A DNA stretch of 64,000 nucleotides from a virus, in IMG/VR virus record IMGVR_UViG_3300046459_000548, positions 28,200 to 92,199 of that record; one strand, given 5' to 3'. The position numbers were made by a program, and so were the translations under genes. This document shows, piece by piece, positions 2,882-45,864 of this stretch. Below the pieces are notes generated by a model. The model saw only the letters and a list, made by a program, of their open reading frames with translations, was not told the DNA's origin and searched no databases. The stretch's first letter is position 1; each line of letters begins with the position of its first letter.

Positions 2882-2929
2882 CCCCACCCCCCATCCCATT
2901 CCTGATTGACCACCTTGAAGGGCACCCCC

Positions 2930-5596: not shown

Positions 5597-5712
5597 ACGT
5601 TCACTCGTTCATTCACCCCAGGGACAGATGAACATTCCCTGTGCTACGCGCGCACGTGCGCGCACAAAGCAGACGTTCACCCGCCCCAGTCACGGACCGT
5701 GAAAGGAAAACG

Positions 5713-6962: not shown

Positions 6963-7355
6963 ATGAGCGAAACGAGCACCGCACGATCGGTCGTCACTTA
7001 CGCCGCCGTGCTCGCCAGGGCTGCGGCCTACGGCATCCGGGCCAGCACCACCAGGCGGGCCGTGGAGCGGCTCCAGTCGCGCTTCCAGGAGCGCGCCGAC
7101 TCGGCCCGGTATCTGTCCGAGGCGATGACCGTCCTGCATGTCGACGAGCCCACCACCACCGCCTACATGGAGATCGCGACCCTGTCGAACGCGATGGCCG
7201 GGAACGTCGGCCAGATCGTCTCCGCCTCCGACTCGCTGGCCACCTCAGCCCAAGGCCTGGACTCGGAGACGAAGGCCCAGCACGGGCGGATGGCCGACGC
7301 CAACCGCACCCACAGCGTGCAGATGGCCGACCGCGAGTTCATCAAGCGCCAGTAG
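6963..7355 (+). CDS. Helical transfer-associated protein
   Basis: All-helical 130 aa ending HGRMADANRTHSVQMADREFIKRQ; directly before traB. Confidence 0.7.
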   Translation: MSETSTARSVVTYAAVLARAAAYGIRASTTRRAVERLQSRFQERADSARYLSEAMTVLHVDEPTTTAYMEIATLSNAMAGNVGQIVSASDSLATSAQGLDSETKAQHGRMADANRTHSVQMADREFIKRQ

Positions 7356-7374
7356 AGGCCAGACACGCCCCACG

Positions 7375-7404
7375 AAGGGCGGGGCCAGCCCTGACCCCGC
7401 CCTT
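7375..7404 (+). terminator. GC hairpin immediately upstream of traB (possible attenuator)
   Basis: AAGGGCGGGGCCAG-CC-CTGACCCCGCCCTT. Confidence 0.55.
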
Positions 7405-7431
7405 CACCACCGCAGACTCGGAGAGAACCGG

Positions 7432-9993
7432 ATGGCAACGCCGACCCTAACCAAGCCCGAAGCTAAGACCGAAGAGCCGCAGCAGGAACTCACTGGACTG
7501 CGCGCCCGCATGGAGCAGTCGATCAACCCCGGCCTGTACGTCGGCGCCGGGCTGGGCGTCGCCTCGGCGTACCTCACCGGCGACCCGCTGCTGCTGACCA
7601 CCGTCGGCGCCACCGGTGTCGCTGCCGGCTGGGCCGCGTTGGGCATGAACCCCGGCCCGTGGCGGTGGCTGCCCGGCCAGGGAGAGCCGTGGGAATGGAT
7701 GTGCCGCCGCAGCAACCGCAGCTACCGGCGCAAGGTCCGTCGGATGCGTATTCGGCTCGACTCCGACGCGCAGGCCGTCGCGGTCGGCCCGGGCAAGACG
7801 AAGCCGATCATCATCGGCGTCACCGACGGCTGGCGCACCCGCGACGACCGGCCGGAACTGGTCCGCGAGGCCACCGCCGAAGCCCACCGGGTCCGCTGCG
7901 CTCTCCTCCGCAAGGTGTGGGCGCAGGCGCTGCCGAACTGGAACTCCGGCTGGTGGCGCAAGTACACGGCCGCCGAGATGGCGCTCCGGGCCGGACCGCT
8001 TGCCGCAATCCCCGCCAGCGGATTCGTCGAGATGCCCTGGTGGGCACACCTCACGGTCGTCAGCATCGGAGCCGGCTGGGGATCCCGCACCTGGCACCGC
8101 CCCGCCCCCGCGGCCATCGACACGGCCGGCCCGAAGGGCGCCGACTGGTATGTGGCCCGCTGGGCGGAGTGGATCGCCTGCGAGCGAGGCCCGCTGCCCG
8201 ACTCCAAGCTGGCCAGTGTCGCCGTCGACGCCGACAAGCTCACCGCGATCATCGTGTCCACCACGGCGAAGCCGGCACTGTCCGTCGACCAGGACTCGAT
8301 CAGCATCGCGTTCGGGGTGCCGCCCCGGGCAGTGAACGTGTACCGGCCCGACGACATGGCCGCCTCCCGGGCCAAGCTGACGGTGCGGCTGCGCACCAAG
8401 GCCGCCGAGCTGGACATGGGCGATCTCGTGGCCGTCTGGGACGAGTACAGCCCCTACACGGGCAGCGAGCTGCACGAGCCGGAGAAGACCGAGTTCGGGC
8501 GCCGCTTCCAGCTGCTCATGCCGCGGAAGGGCTCTTCCGTCGCCGACGTGCAGCCGCGCGCCATTGCCCAGGCCCTAGACCTCAAAGGCGAAGACGCCGT
8601 ATCCCGCCTTCACCTGCGGGTCATCGACGCCCGCCGCATCGAGGTCAACGAGATGAGCACCAACCCGCTTCAGGGCGGCGTGGCGCTCGACCTGGATGCC
8701 CTGACCATGGACGACCAGGGCTACATCACGGTCGGCAAGGACATCTACGGCCGCCCGGCCAAGTGGCGGCTGCTGAAATTCGACCGCAAGCGCCGCGGCC
8801 TGTCCGGGCAGCCGTCCGCGTCCGCCGTGCACTCCTTCGGCTCCGGCACCACCGGCTCCGGTAAGACCAGCCTCGAAGAAGACCTCCAGGTCGCACAGCG
8901 AAAGAACGGCTTCATCTCCTGGCTCGCCGACGGCAAGGGCGGCGCCGGGTATGCCTCCTGGCTGACCGAACTCGACTGGCTCCTCAAGTCGCCCTACGGG
9001 GCGATGCTCATGGGGCAGGCAGCCAACTCGGTCAGCGAGTACCGGTTCGCCGAGCAGATGAAACTGCAGTGGCTCGACGACGAAGGCTTCACCGAGAACG
9101 GGCGCAGTTTCTTCGTCATGAACGACCCGTTCAAGCCCATGGTCTGCACGTGGGACGAGTTCAACGAGATGATCCTCAAGGACCCGACCGCGTTCCACGT
9201 CAAGCCGCTCCTGCGGTCCGTGTCCAGCATCGGACGCCTCTCCCGCGCCGCCGGGATGGCCGCCCGCGTGCTGCTCCAGATCCCCAACCTGGACTCGATC
9301 GGCTCAGACGCGTCCGCCAACGCCATCCGCGACATGCTGCAGTCCGGCAACATCGCGCTGTTCCGCACCGCCCGCTCCGACGTGGACCTCATGTCGCTCG
9401 GATCCCGGACCCCCGAGTTCCGGCTCGCCCCGCTGCTCGAGCGTTTCCCGGACGGCTCCGAGACCGGCGGCCTGTTCTACATCGCCGACGGCAAAGCCCA
9501 GTACACCGCCTCCCGGGCCATGTTCCACAGCAACCCCGCCCGCATCGCCCGCCAGTTCCCCCTGCATGCCATCAGCTGGCAGGAAGCCGACGCCGCCTGC
9601 AAGGCCGGGCCCGCCGGGCTCGCCTACCTGCGGCGCGACGAATACCGCAACCTCGACGCCGGCGACGAGGAGGCGTTCCTCCGCGAGCTCGTCGCCAAAG
9701 AGCAGGAGGGCAGCAAGAAGGGCAAGACCGTCATCGACGTCAAGCCCGCAGTGGCCGCCGAGGTTGATGACGACGACCTCGACGACCTTGTCCCGCCCAC
9801 CCGCTCGCAGCTCGTCTGGCACGCGGTCGACGGCGGCGCCCGCCGCAACAAGCAGATCGCCGAGGTCACCGACCTGACCCGCACCAACGTCGCCGGCGCA
9901 ACAGCCCGCCTGGAGCGCCTCGGCAAGCTCGCCAAGAAGGAACGTGACTGGCACACCGCAGAACCGCTCGACACCGCATCCATCAGCGCCTAA
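7432..9993 (+). CDS. traB: TraB-type FtsK/SpoIIIE conjugative dsDNA translocase
   Basis: N-terminal TM segments, Walker A GTTGSGKT, Walker B VCTWDEF, GRLSRAAG, C-terminal wHTH (RNKQIAEVTDLTRTNVAGATARLERLGKL); RBS GGAG before ATG 7432. Confidence 0.85.
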   Translation: MATPTLTKPEAKTEEPQQELTGLRARMEQSINPGLYVGAGLGVASAYLTGDPLLLTTVGATGVAAGWAALGMNPGPWRWLPGQGEPWEWMCRRSNRSYRRKVRRMRIRLDSDAQAVAVGPGKTKPIIIGVTDGWRTRDDRPELVREATAEAHRVRCALLRKVWAQALPNWNSGWWRKYTAAEMALRAGPLAAIPASGFVEMPWWAHLTVVSIGAGWGSRTWHRPAPAAIDTAGPKGADWYVARWAEWIACERGPLPDSKLASVAVDADKLTAIIVSTTAKPALSVDQDSISIAFGVPPRAVNVYRPDDMAASRAKLTVRLRTKAAELDMGDLVAVWDEYSPYTGSELHEPEKTEFGRRFQLLMPRKGSSVADVQPRAIAQALDLKGEDAVSRLHLRVIDARRIEVNEMSTNPLQGGVALDLDALTMDDQGYITVGKDIYGRPAKWRLLKFDRKRRGLSGQPSASAVHSFGSGTTGSGKTSLEEDLQVAQRKNGFISWLADGKGGAGYASWLTELDWLLKSPYGAMLMGQAANSVSEYRFAEQMKLQWLDDEGFTENGRSFFVMNDPFKPMVCTWDEFNEMILKDPTAFHVKPLLRSVSSIGRLSRAAGMAARVLLQIPNLDSIGSDASANAIRDMLQSGNIALFRTARSDVDLMSLGSRTPEFRLAPLLERFPDGSETGGLFYIADGKAQYTASRAMFHSNPARIARQFPLHAISWQEADAACKAGPAGLAYLRRDEYRNLDAGDEEAFLRELVAKEQEGSKKGKTVIDVKPAVAAEVDDDDLDDLVPPTRSQLVWHAVDGGARRNKQIAEVTDLTRTNVAGATARLERLGKLAKKERDWHTAEPLDTASISA

Positions 9994-12379: not shown

Positions 12380-13078
12380 ATGCACGACCCCACACCTCTC
12401 CCGCCCGCCAAGCTCTGCGAGTGCGGATGCGGTAAGCCCACACCCCTTGCCAAGCAGAACCAGTCGTGGTCCGGGAGGAAGAAGGGTGAGCCAGCCCGCT
12501 TTATTGCGGGCCATAACGCCCGACTTGGAAAGCCTGAAGTGTGTGAAGCGCCGGACTGCGCAAGTAAGCCCTTCGGGGGCGGCCTCTGTTCGAAGCACTA
12601 TCAACGCCAGCGGCGGCACGGAAACCTGACCGGCAAGGTTCCGCAGGGGCCCGCCGAAGAGCGCTTCTGGCGATACGTCGATAAGACGGACGAGTGCTGG
12701 ACCTGGACGGGAGGGCGGGCCAACGACGGTTACGGCCGCTTCTTCATCAGCGAAGGCGACGGTAACGTCGCGGCGCACCGCTTCTCGTACCAACTGCACA
12801 ACGGCGAAATACCGGCCGGCCTCATCATCTGCCACCGATGCGACAACCCTCCGTGCGTGAGGCCAGACCATCTGTTCCTAGGCACTCACCTCGACAACGT
12901 GCAGGACATGTTCAGTAAGGGCCGCAACGTCAACGGTTACGCCAGAAGGACCCACTGTAAGAACGGCCATCCATTCGACGAGGAAAACACTCTGGTTCAG
13001 CCCGGTGGGTGGCGTCGCTGCCGAGCATGCCGCCACCTCGGCTACGTCAAACGGGTCGCAAAGAAGCGAGGTGCCTGA
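12380..13078 (+). CDS. HNH homing-type endonuclease
   Basis: CECGCG...GHN, CWTWTG...YG, AHRFSY, CHRCDNPPCVRPDHL...DN, THCKNGHPF...CRAC. Confidence 0.92.
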   Translation: MHDPTPLPPAKLCECGCGKPTPLAKQNQSWSGRKKGEPARFIAGHNARLGKPEVCEAPDCASKPFGGGLCSKHYQRQRRHGNLTGKVPQGPAEERFWRYVDKTDECWTWTGGRANDGYGRFFISEGDGNVAAHRFSYQLHNGEIPAGLIICHRCDNPPCVRPDHLFLGTHLDNVQDMFSKGRNVNGYARRTHCKNGHPFDEENTLVQPGGWRRCRACRHLGYVKRVAKKRGA

Positions 13079-15236: not shown

Positions 15237-16307
15237 GTGGCGAGCTTCACCGACGACTTTAATCGCGCCAACAGCACCGACCTGGGCGCCGGGTGGGTCG
15301 AGGTCTCAGGCGACTGGTCGATCGTCTCCAACCAGCTCTCGCCGGGCGCAGCGGGCGGCACGATCATTCTGCGCGCCGCCGGTGCGATGGCGGGCAACGA
15401 CAACTACGCGCAAGCCACGATCGCCGCCACCACCACAGCGAGCCAAGGCGTGTGGTGCCGCGGCAACAGCAACATCACCCAGGGCTACCTGTGGCGCAAC
15501 AACGGCACGACCTGGGACCTTTTCCAGGTCTTCGGAGGCTCTTTCACCAACATCGGCACCTATGCGGCAGCAGCCGTCGCAGGTGACGTCGCGAAAGTCC
15601 AGGCCGTCGGCACGACGATCAAAGGGTTCGTCAACGGTGTCCAGCGGGTCAGCGTCACGGACACCGCCGTCACGACGGGCACCAGCGTCGGTATCCGCTC
15701 GGACTCGGCTGGCGCGGTCCGCTACGACGATTTCGCCGCCGCGGACGTGACCGCCGGTGCGACCCTCGCCACCGCAGCCGCCACCGAGACCGCACAGCCG
15801 TTGACCGGCGCCAAGACGACAACGCTCAACCCCGCAGCCGCCACCCACACAGCGCAGCCCCTTACAGGCGCGAAGACCGGGACCCTCACCGCAGCCGCCA
15901 CGCCGGAGTCAGCGCAGCCACTTGCCGGCAGCAAGACGGTCACGCTCGGCACCGCACTTGAAACCGCCGCTACGCAAGCCCTCGCCGGAGCCAAGACGGC
16001 ACCGCTGTCTGCCGTGGCACAAACCGAGACCGCCCAGCCCCTCGCGGTCGTGACCAGCCGAAGTCTCGGCACAGCCATCGTCGTTGAGGCAGCCTGGCCG
16101 CTGTCGGGCGCCAAGAGCGCCGCCCTCGGCCCAGCGTTGGAGACCAGCATCGCGAGGCCACTCGTTACAGCCGGCGGACCCGACGTGGACATCGACGTCA
16201 CCGTCGGCAGTCCGTACAGCCCGTGGACGGCAGGCCAGCCCTACGCGTCCGCCTGGACTGTGCATGCGGGCCGGGCCAGCGACTGGGAGGTGGGCGCACC
16301 GTGCTGA
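15237..16307 (+). CDS. Putative fibre protein: lectin-like head plus 20-aa repeat shaft
   Basis: FTDDFNRANSTDLGAGW...YDDF beta-sandwich-like N-terminus, then about 7 repeats of AxxETAQPLxGAKTxTL. Confidence 0.75.
   Translation: MASFTDDFNRANSTDLGAGWVEVSGDWSIVSNQLSPGAAGGTIILRAAGAMAGNDNYAQATIAATTTASQGVWCRGNSNITQGYLWRNNGTTWDLFQVFGGSFTNIGTYAAAAVAGDVAKVQAVGTTIKGFVNGVQRVSVTDTAVTTGTSVGIRSDSAGAVRYDDFAAADVTAGATLATAAATETAQPLTGAKTTTLNPAAATHTAQPLTGAKTGTLTAAATPESAQPLAGSKTVTLGTALETAATQALAGAKTAPLSAVAQTETAQPLAVVTSRSLGTAIVVEAAWPLSGAKSAALGPALETSIARPLVTAGGPDVDIDVTVGSPYSPWTAGQPYASAWTVHAGRASDWEVGAPC
15762..16165 (+). repeat. About 7 degenerate 60-bp tandem repeats (coding)
   Basis: GCACAGCCG..GGCGCCAAGAC motif recurs every 60 nt. 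Confidence 0.8.
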
Positions 16308-16603: not shown

Positions 16604-16987
16604 ATCGCGGACAACCTGAGCAACACCGCCGAGAACCGCACGATGGACTGGATGATGGGCTCGACCACCACGGCACCCACCACCCCCCTCAAGGTCGCGC
16701 TCGTCACCGCAGCAGGCGACGATGCAACCGCGGGCACCGAAGTCACCGGCGGCTCCTACACCCGCAAGACCCTCACCGTCGCCGCTGCGTCAGGCGGCAG
16801 CGTTGCCAACAGTGCGGACCTCGACTGGACCGGCATGCCCGCGTGCACCATCGTCGGCTGGGAGATCTGGGACTCCGCAGGCACGCCCATCCGCTGGTGG
16901 TACGGGCCGCTCGACGCGAGCAAGACCCTCGCCGCCGGTGACGAGTTCAAGCTGACCGCCGGATCGCTCACGCTGTCGCTGAGCTGA
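16604..16987 (+). CDS. Phage fibre-associated structural protein; probable ATC start
   Basis: LKVALVTAAGDD...EVTGGSYTR...GWEIWDSAG...GPLDASKTLAAGDEF. RBS AGGGGG precedes in-frame ATC-GCG-GAC-AAC; first ATG is at 16643. Confidence 0.75.
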   Translation: MADNLSNTAENRTMDWMMGSTTTAPTTPLKVALVTAAGDDATAGTEVTGGSYTRKTLTVAAASGGSVANSADLDWTGMPACTIVGWEIWDSAGTPIRWWYGPLDASKTLAAGDEFKLTAGSLTLSLS

Positions 16988-16999: not shown

Positions 17000-18121
17000 G
17001 TGCCGTCCTTCAGTAGCCTCTCCGACAACTTCAACGACGGCGTGATCGGCCCGAACTGGGGAAACTCCTACGGCGGTGCCAACGAGACCGGCGGGCAGGC
17101 GCGCGTCCCCTGCGTGGCAGGCTCCTACGGCGGCTATCAGACCGCCTACTCGTGGACGCTCGCCGGCGCCACCATCTTCATGAAAGTCGTCACCGTGCCT
17201 GCCGCATCGACAGCGACGGACGCGTACTGCGGGGTCCTCGTCAACGCCCCCGATATCGCCACGAGCGGCGTCCGTATCGGGTTCACGATCAACGCCGTGA
17301 CGGGGATGCTGCGGATGCAGTCCGACACCGGCTACTACGACCCCACCGGCGTCGAGATCACCTACGATCCGGTGGCACACGCCTTCCTGAGGCTGTCCGA
17401 AGACGGCACCAACGTGCACTGGGACACCAGCCCCGACGGCACCACATGGACCAACCGGCGCACCCTCGCGACCCCGGCCTGGATTCCCGCCAGCATCGAC
17501 ACGTGCGCCCTCGACATGTCCGCACACCGCGACGCCGGAACCACCGACTATGCGGCCTACGACCTGTTCAACACCCTGTCCGACGGCGCCGTATACACCG
17601 GCAGCGGCAGCGGGACGGCCCAGTCGACGGTCACCGCCGCAGGTATCCACATCGGCGTCGGCAGCGGCAGCGGCAGCGCGCAGACCGCGTCCGCCGCCAG
17701 CGGACTCGCCGTCTATCACGGCTCGGCTATCGGCAGCGCCCAGACCGACGCGGTGGCCTCCGCCTCAGCCGGACCCGAATACCCGGAGGTGGCCGGATTG
17801 AGCGCGGGCGACTGGGACCTCTACATCGAGCAGGGCAGCACGTTCGTTCAGACGTACACGGTCACCGACCCCGGTTTCACCTGGGATGGCTGGGCTGCGC
17901 GTGCGCAGATCAGGGCGACAGCCGCGACGGACGCCGAACTCCTCCTCGATCTCACCTCGCACCTCACCGTCACCGGCCCTGCTATCCGCCTGGCGATCCC
18001 CGCATCCGTGACCGAGACCCTGACCCGTAACGGCCGCTGGGACCTGGAAGTTTTCCAGGGCGCCACGGTGGTGCGCCTCCTCAACGGGAAGGCGACCGTC
18101 TCCCCGGAGGTGACCCAGTGA
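17000..18121 (+). CDS. Putative fibre protein: lectin-like domain, Gly/Ser/Ala 20-aa repeats, C-terminal BppU-like domain
   Basis: DNFNDG...TSPDGTTW; GSGSGTAQS repeats; DLYIEQGSTF...ARAQIR...WDLEV...LLNGKATVSPEVT. Confidence 0.75.
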   Translation: MPSFSSLSDNFNDGVIGPNWGNSYGGANETGGQARVPCVAGSYGGYQTAYSWTLAGATIFMKVVTVPAASTATDAYCGVLVNAPDIATSGVRIGFTINAVTGMLRMQSDTGYYDPTGVEITYDPVAHAFLRLSEDGTNVHWDTSPDGTTWTNRRTLATPAWIPASIDTCALDMSAHRDAGTTDYAAYDLFNTLSDGAVYTGSGSGTAQSTVTAAGIHIGVGSGSGSAQTASAASGLAVYHGSAIGSAQTDAVASASAGPEYPEVAGLSAGDWDLYIEQGSTFVQTYTVTDPGFTWDGWAARAQIRATAATDAELLLDLTSHLTVTGPAIRLAIPASVTETLTRNGRWDLEVFQGATVVRLLNGKATVSPEVTQ

Positions 18122-21100
18122 AACTCGAGGTCACAGGCGAGCGGCCCGTCGACGCCATCAACGTCACCAGCGGCCAGCAGTCCACCGTCATCGACGTCAC
18201 TGCAGGAACCGTCACCTCCGTCAACGGCCGCACCGGCGCCGTCACCATCAGCTCCAGCGACGTCGGCGCCCCCGACTGGATCAACGTCGTGCAGCGGGGG
18301 GCAGTAGGCGACGGCATCGCCGACGACACGGCAGCCCTCCAGGCCGCCATCGACGCCTGCCAGCCCGGCGGAACTGTGTACCTGCCGCGCGGCGTCTACA
18401 AGACGACCGCCACGCTGGACCTGAAGAACGGCGTCACCCTGCGCGGCTCCCACGCCAACCTGATGGTCGGGCCCGGCATGGGCGATGCCGACTACCCGTG
18501 CTACATCCAGGCAGCCGGCCCGTTCACCGGCACCTCGGTGATCCAGATCATCGGTGACGCCGACGGCATCCATCCGGCCATCTCCGGTGAGCAGCGCATC
18601 CTCAACCTGATGATCGACGGCTCCCAGCTCGGCGGATCGTCGGTCGACGGTCTGTTCGCCCGCGGTAACGTACAGAACGTCGTCCTCGACAACGTGACGA
18701 TCCGGCAGATGCCGAACAACGGGATCGTCACCGCGAGCCGCGGCGACGGCACGTTCCCGTACTCGTGGCGCCTCCACCATGTCATGGTCGACAACTGCCA
18801 CGCCAACGGCATTCTCTTCACCGGCAATACGGATATCACGCTCGACGACGTGCAGGTCATCGGCTGCTGGGCGCAAGGCTTCGTCCTCACCAACTGCACG
18901 AACGCCCAGCTCATTGCCTGCCGGGCCGAATGGATGGGCAGCCACGGCTACCACCTGACCGGCGCTTGGGGAGACTGGGCCGGATCCGGCGGCATGCAGA
19001 TGACCGGCTGCTCCACCGACCGCAACGGCCAGCACGGCGTCCTCGTCGACGCCACCGGCAACACTCCGATCCTCATCTCCAGCCTCCAGACCCGCCGCGA
19101 CGGCCGCAACGGCGGCGCCGGCGGCGGTGGATACGCCGGCCTGGCCGTCATTGGCGCCACCGTGCCCGTCACCATCGACGGCATCAACTGCTACCCCGGC
19201 GTCGACGACGGAGGCGCTTCCATCAACTCGCCGCAGTACGGGGCGCGCCTGTCCGGTTCCTCCACGGTCACGCTCGACAACGCGCTCCTGCACGCCGACA
19301 CCGCGGGCCTCCTCGATGACGGCACCAACACCCTGATCTCCCTCGGCTCCAACATCGTCACCGCTGCGGGTGCCACCACCTCCACGGCCCGCACCCTACG
19401 GCCGCGCATCCTCGACTGGGTCAACGTCAAGCAGCGAGGCGCCAAAGGCGACGGCACCACCGACGACACTGCCGTCATCCAGGCGGCCCTCACCGCGGCG
19501 CAGCCCGGCGACACGATCTACCTGCCGGCCGGTACCTACCGGACGAGCGCGCCCCTCACGGTGCCGCCCGGCGTCACGCTCCGCGGCTCGCATGGCGATC
19601 ACTTCGACAACCTCACCGGCTGGACGCAGGTCAACGCCCGCATCAAGCCGCTCGCGACGTTCTCCGGGGTGGCCTGCATCCTCATCCTGGACGCGCCCCT
19701 CGGCGGGTATGCGGCCAAGTCGTGCGAGCAGCGACTCCTGGACCTCACCCTCGACGGCACCGCCCTGCCCGGCGGCAACACGGTCGACGGCATTCAGGCG
19801 CAGGGCACCATCCGGGGGATGATCTACGAGAACCTGTCGATCAAGAAGTTCGGCGGGCACGCGATCTACTTCACCTACAACTTCTCGGCCCCGCCAGGCC
19901 TCCCGCAAGCCCCGTATTCGAACCGGCTGCGCCGCATCGTCGCCTCCGACTGCGGCGGCAACACGTACTCCTTCAACAACATGACCGACTCGACGCTCAT
20001 GGACGTCGAGTCGATCGGCAGTGCGGGCTACGGCTTCTTCTTGTCCGGCTGCGGCAACAGCACCCTCATCGCCTGCCGTGCCGAATGGAATCTCCGCGGC
20101 TTCCACATCGTGCCCGGCAACGCGCAGCTGTCCCTGATCGGCTGCTCGACGGACCGCAACACCCAGAACGGCATGCTGATCACCGGTGGCAGCGCGGGTG
20201 CCACGGTGGCCATCACCAACGCACGGTTGAACCGGGATGGCCGCAACGGCAACAGCGGCGGCGGAGGCTACGCAGGCCTCACCGTCGACACCTGCCCCGC
20301 CATGGTCGTCGCCACCGACATCAACGTCCTCACCGGCGTCGACGACGACGGCAGCGGAACCCGCAGCCCCCAGTACGGCGTCAACGTCCTCGGCTCCGCC
20401 TACGTTGCTGTTACCAGCGGCATCCTCAACGCGGCCACCACCGGATTCCGGGACGGCGGCACCAACACCACACTGCTGCGCGGCCCCAACGTTGGCGAAC
20501 TCGTCGGCAACCCCGCGTCGCCCAGCTCGACCACGTCCTACGGGCTGCGCTCCACCCCGACCGCAGCCCAGTTCATCGACAGCTCGGCCGTCGCGCACAA
20601 CCTCATCCGGCCCTCCGCGCCGCTGCCCGTGGACCACGGCTTCCTCGCCTGGGCATACGACCCTTCACCCGCCGGAACCTTCACGGTCTTCACTGGCGGC
20701 GTCATCCAGCTCGTCCGCATCCCCATCCGGGCGACCCGCACCATCACCAACATCTGCCTATACATCGGTACCGCAGGCAACACCCTCACCGCAGGCGCCA
20801 GCTGGGCAGGCCTCTATGACTCCACTGGAGCCCGCCTCGGCCAAACCGCTGACCAGGCCGCCGCGTGGATCAGCACCGGCCTCAAGACCATGGCCATCGC
20901 GGGCGGCCCGGTCACCTTGAACGAGGGCTACTACTGGGTTGCCTGCGTGTCCACCGGCACCACCATCCCCGCCCTCCTGCGGGCATCCGGTGTCGGCGGA
21001 GGCCCTATCAACGTCGGGCTCAGCGCGTCGAACACCAGGTTCGGAACGTTCGGCACCAGCCAGACGACGCTGCCGACGACGATCACGCCCGGCTCCATCG

Positions 21101-21138
21101 GACAGGCCAACAACGCCTACTGGGCGGCCCTGAGCTAA
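18118..21138 (+). CDS. Tailspike/depolymerase with two tandem pectate-lyase-like beta-helix domains
   Basis: VTSVNGRTGAV; WINVVQRGAVGDGIADDTAALQAAI (18277) and WVNVKQRGAKGDGTTDDTAVIQAAL (19417). Confidence 0.88.
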   Translation: MKLEVTGERPVDAINVTSGQQSTVIDVTAGTVTSVNGRTGAVTISSSDVGAPDWINVVQRGAVGDGIADDTAALQAAIDACQPGGTVYLPRGVYKTTATLDLKNGVTLRGSHANLMVGPGMGDADYPCYIQAAGPFTGTSVIQIIGDADGIHPAISGEQRILNLMIDGSQLGGSSVDGLFARGNVQNVVLDNVTIRQMPNNGIVTASRGDGTFPYSWRLHHVMVDNCHANGILFTGNTDITLDDVQVIGCWAQGFVLTNCTNAQLIACRAEWMGSHGYHLTGAWGDWAGSGGMQMTGCSTDRNGQHGVLVDATGNTPILISSLQTRRDGRNGGAGGGGYAGLAVIGATVPVTIDGINCYPGVDDGGASINSPQYGARLSGSSTVTLDNALLHADTAGLLDDGTNTLISLGSNIVTAAGATTSTARTLRPRILDWVNVKQRGAKGDGTTDDTAVIQAALTAAQPGDTIYLPAGTYRTSAPLTVPPGVTLRGSHGDHFDNLTGWTQVNARIKPLATFSGVACILILDAPLGGYAAKSCEQRLLDLTLDGTALPGGNTVDGIQAQGTIRGMIYENLSIKKFGGHAIYFTYNFSAPPGLPQAPYSNRLRRIVASDCGGNTYSFNNMTDSTLMDVESIGSAGYGFFLSGCGNSTLIACRAEWNLRGFHIVPGNAQLSLIGCSTDRNTQNGMLITGGSAGATVAITNARLNRDGRNGNSGGGGYAGLTVDTCPAMVVATDINVLTGVDDDGSGTRSPQYGVNVLGSAYVAVTSGILNAATTGFRDGGTNTTLLRGPNVGELVGNPASPSSTTSYGLRSTPTAAQFIDSSAVAHNLIRPSAPLPVDHGFLAWAYDPSPAGTFTVFTGGVIQLVRIPIRATRTITNICLYIGTAGNTLTAGASWAGLYDSTGARLGQTADQAAAWISTGLKTMAIAGGPVTLNEGYYWVACVSTGTTIPALLRASGVGGGPINVGLSASNTRFGTFGTSQTTLPTTITPGSIGQANNAYWAALS

Positions 21139-21146
21139 GGAGCGCC

Positions 21147-21854
21147 ATGGCCGACGACCTTCTCGTCATCATCCCGACCCGCGGCAGGCCCGGCGCCGTG
21201 CCGGAGATCGTGCAGACGTGGGACGACACCGGGGCCACGGCCGACCTGCTGTTCGCGGTCGACACCGACGATCCGGAGCTCGCCGCGTACAAGAAGCACG
21301 CCGCCGCGCTCAAGGGTGACAGGCGGGTGCGGTTCACGTTCGGCAAGCGGCGCCGCATGGTCGGCACGCTCAACACGCAGGCAGTGAAGGCGGCGAAGAG
21401 CTATCGGTTCCTCGCCTTCCTCGGAGACGACCATCGGCCCCGGCCAGCCGACCGTCCGTGGGACGCCCGCTTCCGCGAGTGCCTGTCGGGCGGGCCCGGC
21501 ATCGTCTACGGCAACGACCTGCTGCAGGGCGAGAACATGCCGACGGCCGTCGCGATGACGTCGGACATCGTGGCCACACTGGACTACATGGCGCCGCCCG
21601 CGATGGTGCATCTCTGCGTCGACCTGGTCTGGAAGGACTGGGGGACCGGCATGCAGCGGATCACCTACCTCGACGACGTAATCATCGAGCACCTGCACCC
21701 GGCGAACGGCAAGGCCGAGGTCGACGCGGGCTACGAAGAGGTCAACAGCCCCGAGCAGGTGTCCAGCGACTCAGCCGCCTACTACGACTACCGCGACAAC
21801 GGCGGCCTCGAAGCCGACCTGGAGAAGCTGCGAGCGCTCGTCGCGTCCGCCTGA
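21147..21854 (+). CDS. GT-A fold (GT2-like) glycosyltransferase
   Basis: VIIPTRGRP...VDTDD...FLGDDH...IEHLHP; RBS AAGGAG. Confidence 0.8.
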   Translation: MADDLLVIIPTRGRPGAVPEIVQTWDDTGATADLLFAVDTDDPELAAYKKHAAALKGDRRVRFTFGKRRRMVGTLNTQAVKAAKSYRFLAFLGDDHRPRPADRPWDARFRECLSGGPGIVYGNDLLQGENMPTAVAMTSDIVATLDYMAPPAMVHLCVDLVWKDWGTGMQRITYLDDVIIEHLHPANGKAEVDAGYEEVNSPEQVSSDSAAYYDYRDNGGLEADLEKLRALVASA

Positions 21855-21894
21855 CCCACAACACCCATACGCCTGCGGCTGATCCCCGCAGGAA

Positions 21895-21928
21895 GGAAGC
21901 CCCGGCGGCCCCGAGCTCCGGGGCTTCC
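21895..21928 (+). terminator. Hairpin
   Basis: GGAAGCCCCGG...CCGGGGCTTCC. Confidence 0.6.
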
Positions 21929-21947
21929 GCATATCTCGGGAGCCCCA

Positions 21948-22394
21948 ATGGACGTGCAGTTCACCGACCGATATGAGGCGCTCGGCATCGAGCCCCCCAG
22001 CCTGCTCACCGTCTGTCGAGGGCAGTGCGAGGGAACGGGTGTCGTGCCCGTGTTCATGGACACGCCCACGGCGGCCCAGCGACGAGGGCGCAACGGAATC
22101 GTGGGCCCGGACGAAACGGACCCAGAACTGATCAGGCAGTGGCGCATTGCCGAGGCGCTGGACCCCAGCGACGACGGATGGCACTTCGTTACCTGCCCAC
22201 GGTGCATCGGGACGGGGAAGCGCAGAGGCCGCTTCCCGCGCCTTCACAACCTGCCGAATCTCGTCCACTGCCAGTGGCGATTCTTCAGAAGTTGCATTCT
22301 CAACATGGACTGCCGAGTCGACCCGGATGCTCGCTGGTCGAGGGTCAAGCACCTGAAGCTCGCGGTGCCCATCCTCTTCGGTAGGCGTCCGTGA
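21948..22394 (+). CDS. Hypothetical protein with split DnaJ-type Zn-finger motifs
   Basis: CRGQCEGTG and CPRCIGTG. Confidence 0.6.
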   Translation: MDVQFTDRYEALGIEPPSLLTVCRGQCEGTGVVPVFMDTPTAAQRRGRNGIVGPDETDPELIRQWRIAEALDPSDDGWHFVTCPRCIGTGKRRGRFPRLHNLPNLVHCQWRFFRSCILNMDCRVDPDARWSRVKHLKLAVPILFGRRP

Positions 22395-23263
22395 TGCGCG
22401 TCCTCCTCACCGGCCACAAGGGGTTCGTAGGTCGTCACCTGCACGCCGCACTCGAAGCTCAAGGCGACGACGTGACCGGCATCGACCTCGCCGACGGCAG
22501 TGGTGACGCCCTCGACTTCTTCCGGACCGACGACACCCGCTACGACCTCGCGGTCCACGCTGCGGCGATCGTCGGCGGCCGGGCCAGCATCGACGGATCG
22601 CCCCTCAGTGTCGGCACGAACCTGGCCCTCGACGCCTGGTACATGCGCTGGCTCATCCGCACCGGAACGCCGAGGGCCGTGTACTTCAGCTCGTCTGCCG
22701 CGTATCCGGTCGCGCTTCAGCAGCCCGGCGACGTGCGGCGTCTGTACGAAGAGGACATCAATCTCTCGTACATGGAAGAGCCCGACGCCACCTATGGCTG
22801 GGCGAAGCTGACGGGGGAGAAGCTCGCCTCCTACGCCGAAGCCGAAGGTTGCCGCATCCTCATCCCGCGCCCGTTCAGCGGCTACGGCGAAGACCAGGAC
22901 CAGGCGTACCCGTTCCCGGCCTTCATCCAGCGGGCCAAGCGGCGCGACGACCCGTTCGAGATCTGGGGATCCGGCGACTCCACACGCGACTGGATCCACA
23001 TCGACGACCTGATCGGCGCCACCCTTGCACTCCTCGACGCCGACGTCACTGGGCCCGTCAACCTCGGCTGGGGCAGGGCGACCAGCTTCGACGAGCTCGC
23101 CCGCATCGTGTGCTCGGCCGCCGGCTACCGGCCGCATCTGAAGCACCGGGCAAACGCACCCCGAGGCGTCCACCACCGCGTCAGCGACCCGGCACGGATG
23201 CTCGACCACTACGTACCCACCGTGACCCTCGAAGAGGGTGTGCGGCGGGCGCTCGAAGCCTGA
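22391..23263 (+). CDS. NAD-dependent nucleotide-sugar epimerase/dehydratase (extended SDR)
   Basis: TGHKGFVG, SSSAAY, YGWAK, WGSGDSTRDWIHIDD. Confidence 0.93.
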   Translation: MMRVLLTGHKGFVGRHLHAALEAQGDDVTGIDLADGSGDALDFFRTDDTRYDLAVHAAAIVGGRASIDGSPLSVGTNLALDAWYMRWLIRTGTPRAVYFSSSAAYPVALQQPGDVRRLYEEDINLSYMEEPDATYGWAKLTGEKLASYAEAEGCRILIPRPFSGYGEDQDQAYPFPAFIQRAKRRDDPFEIWGSGDSTRDWIHIDDLIGATLALLDADVTGPVNLGWGRATSFDELARIVCSAAGYRPHLKHRANAPRGVHHRVSDPARMLDHYVPTVTLEEGVRRALEA

Positions 23264-23711: not shown

Positions 23712-23971
23712 CCGCAGGACGCGAAGCCACCCCCAAGGATGCGGCGGCAACCGAGCGACTCATGCGCTACTGGGCGGAAGGGGCCGGCGCAGCGAAGATC
23801 CAATGGGGCGTGCCGGGAGACTTCGATCGCTGCGTGGTCGAACTCGGGAAGTACGTCAGCCCCAGTGTCGTGAAGGGCCTATGCAGCAGCCTCCACGTGC
23901 GGGCCACAGGTGCGCGGCCGGGCCACGCTCCTGGCGAAGAGGCCGCGGGTAAGACGAAGGACGGCGGCTGA
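23708..23971 (+). CDS. Conserved-looking actinophage hypothetical protein
   Basis: YWAEGAGAAKIQWGVPGDFDRC...GLC..LH motif. Confidence 0.7.
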   Translation: MTAGREATPKDAAATERLMRYWAEGAGAAKIQWGVPGDFDRCVVELGKYVSPSVVKGLCSSLHVRATGARPGHAPGEEAAGKTKDGG

Positions 23972-24282
23972 TGGGCAGCCAGGGCCGGCGCTCAGCACCG
24001 CTTCCCAAGGGCTGGCACCGCATCCGTGCCCGCGTCCTCAGGCGTGACCGCTGGGTGTGCCAGTGGCCCATCATCACGGGCGGCATCTGCGGCGAACCCG
24101 CCAACCAGGTCGACCACAAGGTCGGCGCGGCACAAGGCGTCGACGACCATAGCGATGCGAACCTTTGGGCGTTGTGCGAGTGGCACCACAACCAGAAGAC
24201 CGGGCGCGAGGCATCGGCCGTGGCTCACGCGCTACAGCCGAGAGCAAGGCCACAAGAGAAGCACCCAGGGTTCATCAACTGA
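23971..24282 (+). CDS. Packaging-associated HNH endonuclease (HK97 gp74-like)
   Basis: VLRRDRWVC...VDH...NLWALCEWHHNQKT...HPG; lies upstream of the terminase. Confidence 0.88.
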   Translation: MGSQGRRSAPLPKGWHRIRARVLRRDRWVCQWPIITGGICGEPANQVDHKVGAAQGVDDHSDANLWALCEWHHNQKTGREASAVAHALQPRARPQEKHPGFIN

Positions 24283-24299
24283 CCTGGGACAATGGGGAG

Positions 24300-24992
24300 A
24301 TGAAGCCCTGTCTTGTCTGCGCCACGCCCATTGAACGAGGCAGACGCAAGGGCGGGCCGCTTCCCACCTATTGCTCAACGGCATGCAAGAACAGGTCACG
24401 CCAAGAGCGCGACCGCGAGAACGGCGTCACGGAGACGCGCAAGCTTCAGGCCCGCGAGAAGGCCGAGCGGCACCGTGCTCAACGTCCCGTCCGTCCCTGC
24501 CCGTACTGCAGCGACCCCATGGCCGGCAACCGTCGGAAGCAGTGCGGCAAGACTGAGTGCGTGAAGCGGGCCAAGGCGGATCGCATGCGGGAGTACATGC
24601 GCACGCGTAGGGCTGACCCCGAGATTGCTGCCAAGCATCTTGAGTACGACCGCAAGGCGCAGCAAAAGCGCCTTGAGACAGTGGGCCATTGGCGCACGGT
24701 CTACCCCGAGCATGCGGCCCGCCTGGATGCCCAGCGCCGCATGCTTATACAGGTCGCCACAGTCGAGGAGTTCGCACCTCGCGATGTCTATGAGCGCGAC
24801 GGGTGGGCGTGCCGGCTCTGCTCTCTACCCATCGACCCGACTGTTGCCTGGCCCGACTCCATGAGCGCATCGGTCGACCACGTCGTGCCCCTGTCTAAGG
24901 GCGGCGAGCACTCCATGGCCAACACGCAGGCCGCCCACCTCGGGTGCAACAGCCGCAAGGGTGATCGACTGGCCGGCCGGGATCTCGCGTGA
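24300..24992 (+). CDS. HNH endonuclease with N-terminal Zn motifs
   Basis: YERDGWACRLC...VDHVVPLSKGGEHSMANTQAAHLGCNSRKG. Confidence 0.88.
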   Translation: MKPCLVCATPIERGRRKGGPLPTYCSTACKNRSRQERDRENGVTETRKLQAREKAERHRAQRPVRPCPYCSDPMAGNRRKQCGKTECVKRAKADRMREYMRTRRADPEIAAKHLEYDRKAQQKRLETVGHWRTVYPEHAARLDAQRRMLIQVATVEEFAPRDVYERDGWACRLCSLPIDPTVAWPDSMSASVDHVVPLSKGGEHSMANTQAAHLGCNSRKGDRLAGRDLA

Positions 24993-26314: not shown

Positions 26315-28978
26315 GTGCCTTGGAATGGCGGTACGCCCGAGCAGCCCTTTCCATCGCTGGGCCCGCAGATCGTCGAGCACATCGAGGAGTTCCTCTGCCA
26401 CGGCCCTGGCGACGTTGTCGGCGAGCCGATCGAACTGGACGATGAGTTCTACGCGTTCATCGTCAAGGCCTACCGTCTCGACCCGGAGACGGGCCGCCGT
26501 ATGTACCGGCGGGCGTTCCTGTCACGCGCGAAAGGGCGGGCCAAGTCGGAGATCGCCGGGATGCTCGTGTGCGCGGAGGCCCTGTTCCCGGTCCGCTTCG
26601 ACGGATGGGATGCGAACGGGGAGCCGGTCGGACGGCCGGTGAAGTCGCCGTTCATCCGCTGCCTGGCCACGGAAGAAGGCCAGTCGGGAAACACCTACGA
26701 CAACGTCTCGACGATGCTCGAGTATCTGGTCGAGAACCACGGTGACGACTTCCCGGGGATCGACATCGGCAAGTCGGCGCAGTCGTCGAGCCGGATCATC
26801 CTGCATCACCAGCGCGGCGAAATCACCCCGTCGACGGCGTCGTCTGCGGCGAAGGACGGCGGCAAGGAGACCTTCGCGGTGTTTGATGAGCCCATGGCTC
26901 TCGACACCCCCATACCAACCCCCGACGGCTGGAAGCAGATTGGCGACCTGAAAACCGGCGACTACGTCTACGGCGTGGACGGCCGCCCGATCCTCGTCTG
27001 GGGCGTAGCGCCGATCAAGCGCGATCGCCCCTGCTTCCGCGTGACCTTCGATGACGGCGCATCGGTGGTTACCGACGCCACTCACCGCTGGCACGTCTTC
27101 GACCGCAAGTCCACTAAAAAGTGGGCCGAGTGGACGACGCAGCAGATGGCGGACGCCAACTGGTACGGCGGCAAGCGGTTCGCCGTGGCGCAGGCTGCAG
27201 CGCTGGAAGCCGACGAAACGACGCTCCCGCTGGACCCGTATGTCCTGGGATTGTGGCTCGGCGACGGAGACGAGCGCGCTGCAACGCTCGCCGTGGGTCG
27301 CGACGACCTCGACGGCATGCTCGCAGAGCTTCACCGCGTCGGGTTCACGACCTCCGTCTACGACTACTCGGAAGATCGGGGCGCCGTCGCGGTCCGGTTC
27401 AACCACGGCCAGCGGTACGGCAAGAGCGGCACCTCGCAAGGCGCGCTGCGGGCGCTGGGAGTGCTGGAGAACAAGCATGCTCCGGACTCCTACCTATGGG
27501 CGTCCCGCGAGCAGCGCTTGGCGCTCCTGCAGGGCCTGATGGACAGCGACGGCTACGTCAACGAGCGCGGGAACTGCATCTTCACGAGCTCCTCGCGCGC
27601 CCTGGCGGACGCTGTTGTCCAGCTGGTGCGCTCGCTGGGCTGGCGCACGAGCGCAGGCCACTGGAGTTCGGACGAGCGCTGGAAGTCGCGGGTCACGGGA
27701 ACGTGGCGGGTCTCTTTCACGCCGTCAGGGATGGTTCCGTTCCGCATGAAGCGCAAGGCGGAGCGCTGCCGCCCGGTGGTCGCCGAGAAGACTCGGGCGA
27801 TCACGTCCATTGAGCCGGTGGAGTCGGTACCTGTCCGCTGCATCGCGGTGGACTCCGAAGATCACCTGTTCCTGGCTGGCGAGTCGATGCTTCCGACGCA
27901 CAACACGCACCTGTACGTGCTTCCGGAGCTGCGGCGCATGCACGGCACGGTCCGCCGCAACCTGCGGAAGCGCAAGGAAGCTGAACCGTGGTGCCTTGAG
28001 ACGTCGACGATGTACGAGCCGGGCCAGGACTCGGTGGCCGAAGCGACGCACACGTACTACAAGGCGATCAAGGAGGGGCGAGTTCGGGACGCGGACGCTG
28101 CCGGTCTCCTCTTCGATCATCGTCAGGCGAAGGACGGTACGGACCTCGCGGATCGTGACGCGCTCCTTGCTGGGCTCCGCGAGGCTTACGGGCCGGCCGC
28201 GGCCTGGATGGATCTGGACGGCATCGTTGCGGAGATTTGGGATCCGCAGTCGGCGCCTTCGGATTCGCGCCGGTACTGGTTGAACCAGCCGGTTGCGGCG
28301 GAGGATGCGCTGCTGGATCCGGCGGAGTGGGCGAAGTGTGCGTCGGAGCTTCGGCTCGAGGACGGCGACGACATCGTTCTCGGCTTCGATGGCGGCAAGT
28401 CGGATGACGCGACCGCGCTGGTCGCAATGCGGGTGTCGGACCGTCTCGTGCAGCCGCTGGGAATCTGGGAGCGCCCGGATGGTCCGCTGGCGAAGGGCTG
28501 GGAGGTCGACCGTAAGCAGGTCTCTGATCTGGTGGCGCATGCCTTCGGCCGCTACGGGGTGCGGGCGTTTTTCGCCGACGTGAAGCTGTGGGAGTCGTAC
28601 ATCGACGAGTGGACGGACACCTACCGGGATGAACTGTTGGCGAAGGCGTCTGCGAAGTCGCTGATCGGCTACGACATGCGGGGGCATCAGCAGGAGTTGA
28701 CGAAGGCGACTGAGGCGCTGGTGCAGGCGATCGCAGACGGCAAGCTCCCGCACACGAACCATCCGATCTTGAACCGGCATGTCGGCAACGCGCGGCGCCG
28801 GCCGAACCGTTTCGGCGTCAGCTTCGGCAAGGAGTCGCGTGAGTCGCCAAAGAAAGTGGACGGGTTCGCGGCGATGCAGCTGGCGGATATGGCGAGGCGG
28901 GCGCTGCTCGCGTCGTCTGAGTGGACGAAGCGGCAGAAGAAGCGGCAGCGGACGGGGCGGGTTCATGGCTTTGGGTGA
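26315..28978 (+). CDS. Terminase large subunit with intein
   Basis: RAKGRAKS (Walker A), FAVFDE (Walker B), LGFDGGKSDDATAL nuclease motif, KKVDG. Confidence 0.95.
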   Translation: MPWNGGTPEQPFPSLGPQIVEHIEEFLCHGPGDVVGEPIELDDEFYAFIVKAYRLDPETGRRMYRRAFLSRAKGRAKSEIAGMLVCAEALFPVRFDGWDANGEPVGRPVKSPFIRCLATEEGQSGNTYDNVSTMLEYLVENHGDDFPGIDIGKSAQSSSRIILHHQRGEITPSTASSAAKDGGKETFAVFDEPMALDTPIPTPDGWKQIGDLKTGDYVYGVDGRPILVWGVAPIKRDRPCFRVTFDDGASVVTDATHRWHVFDRKSTKKWAEWTTQQMADANWYGGKRFAVAQAAALEADETTLPLDPYVLGLWLGDGDERAATLAVGRDDLDGMLAELHRVGFTTSVYDYSEDRGAVAVRFNHGQRYGKSGTSQGALRALGVLENKHAPDSYLWASREQRLALLQGLMDSDGYVNERGNCIFTSSSRALADAVVQLVRSLGWRTSAGHWSSDERWKSRVTGTWRVSFTPSGMVPFRMKRKAERCRPVVAEKTRAITSIEPVESVPVRCIAVDSEDHLFLAGESMLPTHNTHLYVLPELRRMHGTVRRNLRKRKEAEPWCLETSTMYEPGQDSVAEATHTYYKAIKEGRVRDADAAGLLFDHRQAKDGTDLADRDALLAGLREAYGPAAAWMDLDGIVAEIWDPQSAPSDSRRYWLNQPVAAEDALLDPAEWAKCASELRLEDGDDIVLGFDGGKSDDATALVAMRVSDRLVQPLGIWERPDGPLAKGWEVDRKQVSDLVAHAFGRYGVRAFFADVKLWESYIDEWTDTYRDELLAKASAKSLIGYDMRGHQQELTKATEALVQAIADGKLPHTNHPILNRHVGNARRRPNRFGVSFGKESRESPKKVDGFAAMQLADMARRALLASSEWTKRQKKRQRTGRVHGFG
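26891..27904 (+). mobile_element. Class 3 intein with LAGLIDADG homing endonuclease (338 aa)
   Basis: Starts PMALDTPIPTPDGW after DE and ends LPTHN/T. WCT triad present (HRW, VRCIAV, THN). VLGLWLGDG and LLQGLMDSDG motifs. Confidence 0.92.
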
Positions 28979-33287: not shown

Positions 33288-33354
33288 TTCCGCCCCGGCG
33301 GCCGGCTTCTCCCGCGCCGAGCCGGCCGCCGCCCGGTGGAGATCGGAGACCCTG

Positions 33355-45861: not shown

Positions 45862-45864
45862 TCG

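Follow-up and report, generated by a model that had tools for sequence, protein, structure and literature searches.

The tailspike gene occupies positions 18118..21138 (+) of the window, the 64,000-nucleotide stretch of viral DNA that was analysed, which forms part of a 92-kb record of an uncultured Streptomyces siphovirus or prophage. It is an uninterrupted open reading frame of 1006 codons (product P0001, 1006 aa) and belongs to a module of tail-fibre genes situated upstream of that for the terminase. The same module contains a gene for a fibre or virion structural protein of 356 aa (15237..16307, +), a small fibre gene of 114 aa (16643..16987, +) matching Pfam PF23140, ‘Podophage GP4 fiber I protein gp80’, and a minor-tail-like gene of 373 aa (17000..18121, +), which is translationally coupled to the spike gene and whose product is a candidate adaptor for the spike. 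The GTG start of the spike gene shares letters with the upstream stop codon (GTGA), and the ribosome-binding site GGAGGTGA (18106..18113, +) lies 4 nt 5’ of it. When the spike gene was scanned for Shine-Dalgarno-like motifs with an in-frame start, the single match (1/1) was the annotated start; a short isoform made of the second beta-helix unit and the C-terminal domain was rejected, as no internal in-frame ATG, GTG or TTG has such a motif. Two antisense open reading frames (17848-19293 and 19396-20637) fail the filter of a GC3 of at least 0.80 and were set aside as shadows of a high-GC gene. All of the five genome-contig loci carrying relatives belong to Streptomyces.

The first 50 residues of P0001 (aa 1-50; 18118..18267, +) are a putative anchor, and an N-terminus of this type, 45-50 aa long, heads both the single-unit and the double-unit spikes of relatives. 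Two beta-helix units follow, unit 1 at aa 51-426 (18268..19395, +) and unit 2 at aa 431-805 (19408..20532, +), and they meet at a joint spanning aa 421-431 (TARTL / RPRILDW; 19378..19410, +). A preliminary description of this DNA had proposed two homologous, clearly diverged units of about 380 aa, 1140 nt apart, and the analysis agrees with it in each respect: when aa 1-430 were compared with aa 431-820 by BLASTP, 156 of 381 positions were identical (41%, 226 bits, E 2e-74), well above chance, and the copies, which also fall in separate, well-supported clades, lie 380 codons apart. At the DNA level, positions 18270-18452 (183 nt) recur at 19410-19592 with 72% identity and a spacing of exactly 1140 nt, and several shorter repeats within the gene are spaced by 1128-1140 nt. 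All six motifs listed in that description occur exactly twice in the protein, namely W.NV.QRGA.GDG..DDTA (aa 54 and 434), ACRAEW (aa 267 and 652), GCSTDRN (aa 297 and 675), RDGRNG (aa 327 and 706), GGGGYAGL (aa 335 and 714) and PQYG (aa 372 and 751). Each helix opens with GDGxxDDTxA (aa 64 and 444), which we take to be the N-terminal cap motif of the pectate-lyase-like beta-helix PF12708. This Pfam family matches the protein in two stretches with 112.1 bits (cut-off 27), and PF13229 likewise matches in two stretches; the only PF12708 matches in the 92-kb record are the two in this gene, both above the cut-off (60.6 and 60 bits). In PHROG, the top hit is ‘minor tail protein’ (E 2.2e-165) and the best families are all tail proteins, so that Pfam, PHROG and BLASTP agree on a tail protein with two homologous, diverged pectate-lyase-like units.

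The preliminary description overlooked a third domain of 186 aa at the C-terminus (aa 821-1006; 20578..21135, +); other spikes and fibres of Streptomyces phages end in this domain too. A Pfam search found no family for it at E <= 10, and searches against solved structures, with the single sequence or a profile of seven, found no relative (best E 0.93). In a protein atlas it matched unnamed viral clusters only, with a weak lead to DUF4082 at 0.77; the feature matches of P0013, a relative with a single unit, were PF12708 clusters only (0.82-0.84).

With regard to conservation, 63 of the 71 columns conserved at 80% or more are identical in both units, the eight exceptions being all Gly, Ala, Pro or aliphatic residues, and each unit keeps 28/28 conserved polar columns and 13/13 core motif residues, counted on columns that were derived from proteins retrieved with P0001 as the query and that lean towards it. 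The dN/dS of unit 1 is 0.22-0.25 relative to the related loci L003 and L010 and 0.42 relative to L014, and that of unit 2 is 0.18 relative to L014, all of them NG86 values that are rough at this divergence and GC3; the low ones point to purifying selection. Neither unit looks degenerate, because the 28 polar residues are kept in both and dN/dS is around 0.2; the decay of one domain, which the preliminary description had named as one outcome that would speak against its reading, is thus not what was found. Conserved acidic and basic residues are found in both units, and candidate ladders of conserved acidic residues are formed by D239 (18832-18834), E271 (18928-18930), D301 (19018-19020) and D328 (19099-19101) in unit 1, and by D624 (19987-19989), E656 (20083-20085), D679 (20152-20154) and D707 (20236-20238) in unit 2. 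Still, the name depolymerase, given to the protein in that description, is best taken as a prediction from sequence. A literature search on this helix family found no characterised member and no measured activity, substrate or solved structure, and among NCBIfam models no glycosidase was reached, the best being a rhamnogalacturonidase (46.7 bits, cut-off 500) and another the GH28-type polygalacturonase PglA (24 bits, cut-off 600), both matching the cap only.

The tandem appears to have arisen by the joining of two stand-alone modules and not by local duplication, a point absent from the preliminary description. In a tree of 286 units, the smallest clade holding both units of P0001 contains 266; unit 2 falls within a clade of 15 (support 1.0) and unit 1 within nested clades (support 0.997-0.998) that leave unit 2 outside. 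A recent internal duplication was rejected on the basis of these distant, well-supported positions. Furthermore, both types are used singly by relatives: P0029 (80% identity), P0047 (74%) and P0070 (68%) have a single helix of the unit-1 type, P0008, P0010, P0011, P0013 and P0022 (79-89%) a single one of the unit-2 type, and all of these spikes have the same kind of N-terminus as P0001. The unit-1 type ends in TARTL and continues either into the DW.NV start of a next unit or into a C-terminal domain.

The same joint marks the limit of similarity between related loci. Colinearity in blastn ends at 19380-19397 in four relatives (L004, L005, L007 and L012) and at 19577-19597 in two others, is unbroken in one, and resumes at 21051-21142. 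As colinearity with four relatives stops where unit 1 meets unit 2, unit 2 and the C-terminal domain form a cassette that is exchanged behind a unit 1 conserved in the lineage, a point that the preliminary description had likewise missed. Unit 1 is 64-89% identical in relatives with differing second modules, and elsewhere its partners include HylP-type, GDSL esterase and LamG modules and divergent helices. Multi-module spikes are common in this helix family, with two or three full units in 26 of 260 family proteins. The family comprises 399 representative clusters at E <= 1e-30, and a megablast search for near-identical DNA in cultured phages found none.

Phage receptor-binding enzymes are usually described with one catalytic beta-helix per chain, and wider phage specificity usually comes via several different spikes. 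Canonical tailspikes, such as those of Sf6 and phiAB6 and the Klebsiella capsule depolymerases, are homotrimers with one right-handed beta-helix in each chain, and the canonical tailspike depolymerase is described as having a three-domain plan of N-terminal anchor, beta-helix and C-terminal domain (PMC11652154). P0001 resembles them in its tail context, putative anchor, PF12708/PF13229 helix, C-terminal domain and distal exchange; the PF23140 fibre and minor tail neighbours and the shared N-terminus are consistent with the gene setting of a tailspike, and the spikes of Sf6 (2vbe) and phiAB6 (5js4) are among the hits of the family profile, the match lying in the cap region. Unlike them, it carries two full units (aa 51-426 and 431-805), that is, two helices of catalytic type in series, each type being single elsewhere. 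It appears therefore to be a variant of the tailspike depolymerase kind with two complete modules in one chain.

Among cultured Streptomyces phages, the spikes pSt2308 (986 aa) and Kela gp152 (1778 aa) and the single-unit minor tail proteins of Ibantik, Success and Stella belong to the same helix family, with 34-46% identity to P0001. pSt2308 has one full unit and the start of a divergent second helix (halves 25% identical, E 5e-6), Kela gp152 shows a weak match besides its one full unit, and none of the four that were inspected closely or judged from match length (pSt2308, Kela, Ibantik and Success) has two full units of the same family. The only report found in the literature, as far as its available text goes, of a phage tail fibre protein with two domains of pectate-lyase type concerns the phAss-1-like gut phages, for which AlphaFold models predict tail fibres with ‘two pectate lyase domains’ (PMC10607447). 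These are unrelated phages with unrelated hosts and are likened to P0001 by description; their two domains together span just 429-594 aa, and the accessible part of that report gives no analysis of the domains’ origin, autonomy or exchange (PMC10607447).

Taken together with the tail-protein matches, these features suggest that P0001 is a tailspike in the virion of a temperate siphovirus of Streptomyces, and its chain would run from a 50-aa anchor through module A (unit 1) and module B (unit 2) to the 186-aa C-terminal domain. Two enzyme modules would have been joined at a clean joint, with module A staying fixed in the lineage and module B being exchanged with the C-terminal domain. Each module may be an independent glycan-cleaving site, the candidate site being a groove lined by the acidic ladder and arginines on successive coils, and the targets of the two in the Streptomyces cell wall may be different glycopolymers or different linkages; the spike is probably homotrimeric, its active sites arranged in two storeys, and a single spike could thereby open two layers or serve two receptor types. 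What the comparisons show is the order of the parts, the distinct ancestry of the modules, the breakpoints of the cassette and the conserved family residues kept in both modules; the separate cleaving sites and their different targets are predictions. We place this account, of joined modules with two independent sites for different wall polymers, somewhat above even odds.

The idea of two polysaccharide specificities, one of two put forward in the preliminary description, gains indirect support because the units lie in separate clades, each type occurs alone elsewhere, 66 positions are conserved differently between the unit clades (as against 94 shared) and the pI of the central coils differs (6.0 vs 8.8). 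The differing positions, densest at aa 176-325, suggest different substrates, although separate clades and differing positions do not prove different ones. The arrangement probably lets one spike attack two different cell-surface sugars. In the literature, a search for the glycan receptors of Streptomyces phages found genome annotations only.

The strongest competitor, to which we would give perhaps one chance in a handful, is that only the distal cassette of unit 2 and C-terminal domain sets and cleaves the receptor, while unit 1, its fold retained, serves as a shaft, a spacer or a lectin-like binder and adds no second specificity. Spikes usually carry structural domains near the anchor, and unit 1 adjoins the anchor and is the lineage-conserved part, well preserved even where the second modules of relatives differ. 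A parallel exists in the two-domain PL6 alginate lyases, which likewise have two parallel beta-helix domains per chain and in which the second helix is described as non-catalytic and as shaping the site of the first (PMC12992946). In P0001, however, both helices hold the full conserved residue set, and none of the sequence matches to solved chains was named as PL6. Also counting against a mere shaft are the full core and polar residue sets of unit 1, its dN/dS of 0.22-0.25 and the presence of its type as the only helix in P0029, P0047 and P0070, and first units of multi-module proteins keep at least as many core residues as sole units do (12.7/13 vs 11.7/13).

Somewhat less probable still is a cooperation of both modules on one polymer, by endo and exo action or by processive hand-over, the latter close to the processive tandem enzyme that the preliminary description gave as its other option. 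The parallel here is AlgE1, a mannuronan C-5 epimerase with two beta-helix A-modules in an elongated chain, both active and with distinct roles (PMC12269086). The identical motif set of the two units of P0001 would fit such a scheme, as would the relation of the family profile to the AlgE A-modules: the closest solved relatives over a long stretch are AlgE4 (2pyg; E 6.6e-19, profile positions 33-240) and the chains 8xfq and 8ja4 (E 2.7e-17, positions 34-289), and alginate epimerases are the only solved chains matched beyond the N-terminal cap. The likeness does not extend to the residues that define the family, since the alignment with 8xfq matches the A of CRAEW and the N of TDRN alone and leaves the invariant R, E, D and R of CRAEW, TDRN and RDGRN unmatched. 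Additionally, P0001 has no R-modules between its units, and the AlgE1-type enzymes are secreted by bacteria whereas P0001 has a phage tail context. Module B is swapped independently of module A, and module A has many unrelated partners, a pattern easier to reconcile with independent modules than with a co-adapted pair; the 66 differently conserved positions also count against a common substrate.

That the helices lie side by side, with a single site at their interface or with one shaping the site of the other, seems improbable. The best solved matches are the GH55 chains 5m5z (CtLam55) and 3eqn (PcLam55A), each matching twice at about 350 residues apart, and GH55 enzymes, which are beta-1,3-glucanases and include SacteLam55A, are described as having two tandem beta-helical domains of ~350-380 aa, the active site being formed where the two meet (PMC10637969). 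Both GH55 and P0001 open each domain with a GDGxTDDT cap motif. The similarity is nevertheless confined to this N-terminal cap (~60-125 residues), the catalytic C-domain region lies outside the 5m5z and 3eqn matches, and, whereas the GH55 domains share one site, both unit types of P0001 occur alone and the second is freely swapped; this speaks indirectly against an obligate pair, which would not tolerate it. Equally improbable is that the protein stays outside the virion as a soluble enzyme of the phage or prophage, set free for instance at lysis: the gene does lie outside the tape-measure and distal-tail module at 39009-46956, but its best PHROG families are tail proteins throughout, it is coupled to a minor-tail-like gene, its short N-terminus is common to a whole set of spikes, and after the distal tail genes there is no further candidate for receptor binding.

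P0001 thus unites in one chain two complete modules that, as the comparisons show, stand alone elsewhere, and the distal one is exchanged as a cassette. Should both prove active, dual specificity would be reached by compact means, and engineers of chimeric depolymerases would have a natural model to follow. The protein also draws attention to an enzyme family whose members are specific to cell walls of the Streptomyces type. More tentatively, and with the odds somewhat against it, Streptomyces phages may line up self-sufficient enzyme modules in a single polypeptide, with a common anchor in front and clean recombination joints between them, giving multi-storey spikes of up to three beta-helices or of a helix with a GDSL esterase, HylP-type or lectin-like module. 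Where Klebsiella and Ackermannviridae phages have branched complexes of several spikes, such chains would achieve the like with one polypeptide, and one spike could then carry a lineage-constant activity on a common wall polymer together with an exchangeable, strain-specific one.

A link between the glycosyltransferase gene downstream and the specificity of the spike was also considered and found unsupported, because glycosyltransferase identity does not track cassette type (73% in L014, with the same cassette, vs 88% in L012, with a different one). Homologues in cultured phages carry no annotation beyond tailspike, minor tail or hypothetical protein, and NCBI calls homologues ‘glycosyl hydrolase family 28-related’. 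The gene order of fibre genes, spike, glycosyltransferase and epimerase is kept in six of the ten related loci (L003, L004, L007, L010, L012 and L014).

The spike gene (18118-21138, + strand) is open over 1006 codons, and its GTG start codon, which overlaps the stop codon of the preceding gene, sits 4 nt downstream of GGAGGTGA. The tandem of two pectate-lyase-like beta-helix units in its product is real and well defined. Each motif listed in a preliminary description has exactly two occurrences, separated by about 380 residues (aa 54/434, 267/652, 297/675, 327/706, 335/714 and 372/751), and the two units (unit 1, aa 51-426; unit 2, aa 431-805) are homologous and diverged, as had been proposed, with 156/381 identities (41%) when the first part of the protein is compared with the second by BLASTP (226 bits, E 2e-74). 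The reported spacing of 1140 nt was also recovered in the DNA, where a 183-nt stretch is repeated 1140 nt downstream with 72% identity. Two stretches of the protein are matched by PF12708, the pectate-lyase-like right-handed beta-helix family (112.1 bits, cut-off 27), which has no further match in the whole 92,199-base record, and likewise two by PF13229. Outside the units, the spike has an N-terminus of 50 aa and, at aa 821-1006, a C-terminal domain of 186 aa.

The same description had named a catalytically degenerate domain as one observation that would count against its reading of two polysaccharide specificities or a processive tandem enzyme. Judged by conserved residues, neither unit is degenerate. 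Among 71 columns in which one residue is found in at least 80% of 286 units, a set derived from proteins retrieved with this spike as the query, the conserved residue is present in both units at 63; the eight exceptions, seven of them in unit 2 and one in unit 1, concern only Gly, Ala, Pro or aliphatic columns. Each unit retains 28/28 conserved polar columns and 13/13 residues of the core motifs TD, CRAEW, TDRN, RDGRN and DD. Across the family, the first units of multi-module proteins retain the core no less well than sole units (12.7/13 vs 11.7/13). The core is lost in some later units of other proteins, such as P0137 (1/13) and P0176 (2/13), so that degeneration can occur in this family but is absent from this spike. 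With regard to selection, Nei-Gojobori dN/dS values, which are rough at such divergence, are 0.22-0.25 for unit 1 against the related loci L003 and L010; in the comparison with L014, unit 1 gives 0.42 and unit 2 gives 0.18.

The two units do not appear as sister copies in the tree of the 286 units. They are 2.2 substitutions per site apart, and the smallest clade that holds both comprises 266 of the 286. Unit 2 falls in a clade of 15 (support 1.0), and unit 1 in nested clades without unit 2 (0.997-0.998). Unit 2 is most closely related to helices that stand alone in five spikes of 613-672 aa (P0008, P0010, P0011, P0013 and P0022; 79-89% identity), four of which also carry the C-terminal domain of the spike (75-80%), while the unit-1 type is the only helix in P0029, P0047 and P0070 (80, 74 and 68%, respectively). 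Sole-helix spikes of either type have an N-terminus of the same kind as the tandem spike, and the combination of both types recurs in the related proteins P0002-P0005 and in L014, a locus from a Streptomyces MAG. The unit-1 type terminates in ...TARTL, which is followed either by the RP..DW.NV start of the next unit or by the C-terminal domain. At the DNA level, colinearity with L004, L005, L007 and L012 breaks off where unit 1 ends (19380-19397), and that with L003 and L010 at 19577-19597; it is unbroken in L014, and picks up again at 21051-21142, the end of the gene. These breakpoints indicate that unit 1 is conserved in the lineage and that unit 2 together with the C-terminal domain forms an exchangeable cassette. 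The protein is best read as a two-module tailspike built from autonomous modules, the distal one being exchangeable. In the Streptomyces prophage L012, a domain 39% identical to the C-terminal domain ends a second, upstream fibre gene (3219-3653), so that the C-terminal domain is a module common to fibre proteins. In L005 and L011, a pair of genes, one gp80-like small fibre and one minor-tail-like, is present twice in tandem (2886-3862 and 4531-5998), upstream of a single-unit spike.

In an exhaustive profile-free search, 14,970 representative proteins passed a threshold of E <= 0.001; of these, 399 also passed E <= 1e-30. A sample of 260 proteins, made up of the best 120 matches of a word-indexed search and the best 150 representatives, which overlap, was scanned with an HMM of the two units. 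One unit followed by less than 330 aa was found in 151 proteins, one unit with a further part of at least 330 aa in 55, one unit with the start of a second, divergent helix in 26, two full units in 24, three in two, and no unit in two. In 16 chosen members scanned against Pfam, the partners of the helix included a second or third PF12708 helix, a HylP-type hyaluronidase, a GDSL esterase, a Laminin-G-like domain and a K1-lyase C-terminal domain. Taken together, the census and these combinations place the tandem as one state of a widespread combinatorial system. Among cultured phages, the pSt2308 spike (986 aa) combines a full unit with the beginning of a second helix that is divergent, and in Kela gp152 (1778 aa) a full unit is accompanied by a weak second match; both records are annotated as tailspike only.

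The canonical depolymerase spike, as outlined in PMC11652154, has a single helix between anchor and C-terminal domain, whereas the spike of this Streptomyces virus has two. Among enzymes with paired helices, two helices flank a single interface site in GH55 (PMC10637969), one catalytic helix is paired with a helper in two-domain PL6 lyases (PMC12992946), and the single chain of AlgE1 holds two beta-helix modules that are both active (PMC12269086), the last being the closest functional analogue and a member of the nearest solved family. Against solved structures, sequence and profile searches gave matches confined to the N-terminal cap for GH55 glucanases, GH28-type enzymes and the Sf6 and phiAB6 spikes. 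Alginate C-5 epimerases were matched over 208-256 positions (E 6.6e-19 to 2.7e-17), but the invariant residues of the spike family, except for the A of CRAEW and the N of TDRN, have no counterpart in that alignment, and no NCBIfam model was reached. Conserved Asp/Glu residues (candidates are D239, E271, D301 and D328 in unit 1, and D624, E656, D679 and D707 in unit 2) lie 27-32 residues apart with arginines alongside, as a catalytic groove on successive coils would be expected to look. An anionic wall polymer is a reasonable guess for the candidate substrate.

With regard to specificity, the clades of unit 1 (65 units) and unit 2 (15 units) conserve the same residue at 94 positions and different residues at 66. 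Charge changes are frequent among these differences, which concentrate at aa 176-325, and the pI of the central coils is 6.0 in unit 1 vs 8.8 in unit 2. Both observations are consistent with substrate grooves that differ between the units while the catalytic core is shared. Dual specificity of the spike, as judged from its sequence, seems plausible, with the balance tilting slightly in its favour. In the literature searched for tailspikes with tandem or double beta-helix or depolymerase domains, one relevant case was found, the fibres of phAss-1-like gut phages, credited with 'two pectate lyase domains' in AlphaFold models (PMC10607447). The 'two depolymerase domains' of a Klebsiella phage protein are endosialidase-type and hyaluronidase-type annotations (PMC9294173), and for Streptomyces phages the searches turned up nothing beyond the annotation of single pfam12708 proteins (PMC5336643).

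The host of the virus is Streptomyces. All five related loci in bacterial genomes are from this genus, and they are taken as prophages since they sit on contigs of up to 396 kb; in a cultured-phage collection, Streptomyces phages account for 51/90 matching records, all below 60% identity, and no near-identical DNA was found there. The window covers bases 28200-92199 of the record, which is rated complete. The canonical siphovirus structural genes begin with terminase at 26315 and continue as far as endolysin and holin near 49900, in the order terminase, portal, protease, scaffold, capsid, adaptors, tail tube, tape measure (1532 aa) and distal tail proteins. Located 5 kb upstream of the terminase gene, the spike gene belongs to a separate fibre module, together with genes for a virion-structural-like protein (356 aa), a protein matching PF23140, fibre protein gp80 of podophage GP4 (114 aa), and a protein whose N-terminal half resembles minor tail proteins of 11 Streptomyces phage records (373 aa). 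The spike has 'minor tail protein' as its top PHROG (E 2.2e-165), and almost every other match is to a tail spike or fibre family.

Directly after the spike, three genes (21147-23263, +) encode a glycosyltransferase-like protein (235 aa; PHROG 14945, no Pfam family), a 148-aa protein without a match and an NAD-dependent epimerase/reductase (290 aa; PF01370), for which the nearest NCBIfam model, GDP-L-fucose synthase, scores 90 bits, far under its cut-off. In L003, L004, L007, L010, L012 and L014, the spike is likewise followed by the glycosyltransferase and the epimerase, whose identity does not track the type of spike cassette. Two GT4-type glycosyltransferases (Pfam) are also found among the head and neck genes (33253-34368 and 34978-35985, +).

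Around the fibre module and ahead of the terminase gene there are three HNH endonuclease-like ORFs (12380-13078, 23971-24282 and 24165-24992, +). The terminase large subunit (26315-28978, +) has an unusual length of 887 aa. In L005/L011, the counterparts of its residues 11-186 and 542-870 are separated by only 55 nt, and the roughly 355 middle residues without a counterpart there could be an insertion or mere divergence. Three large ORFs (4103-5218, 5641-6960 and 7138-9993, +; 371, 439 and 951 aa) have a coding-type GC3 of 0.85-0.91 but matched no PHROG or Pfam family at the thresholds applied. A weak tyrosine-integrase-like match (21.5 bits, below cut-off) is located at G000:C1:1919-2443 (-), near the left end of the record and outside the window. 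Within the window, genes for a transposase-like protein (PHROG 2331) and a Ku-like DNA-end-binding protein are found at 55175-56428 (-) and 58127-59419 (+), respectively.
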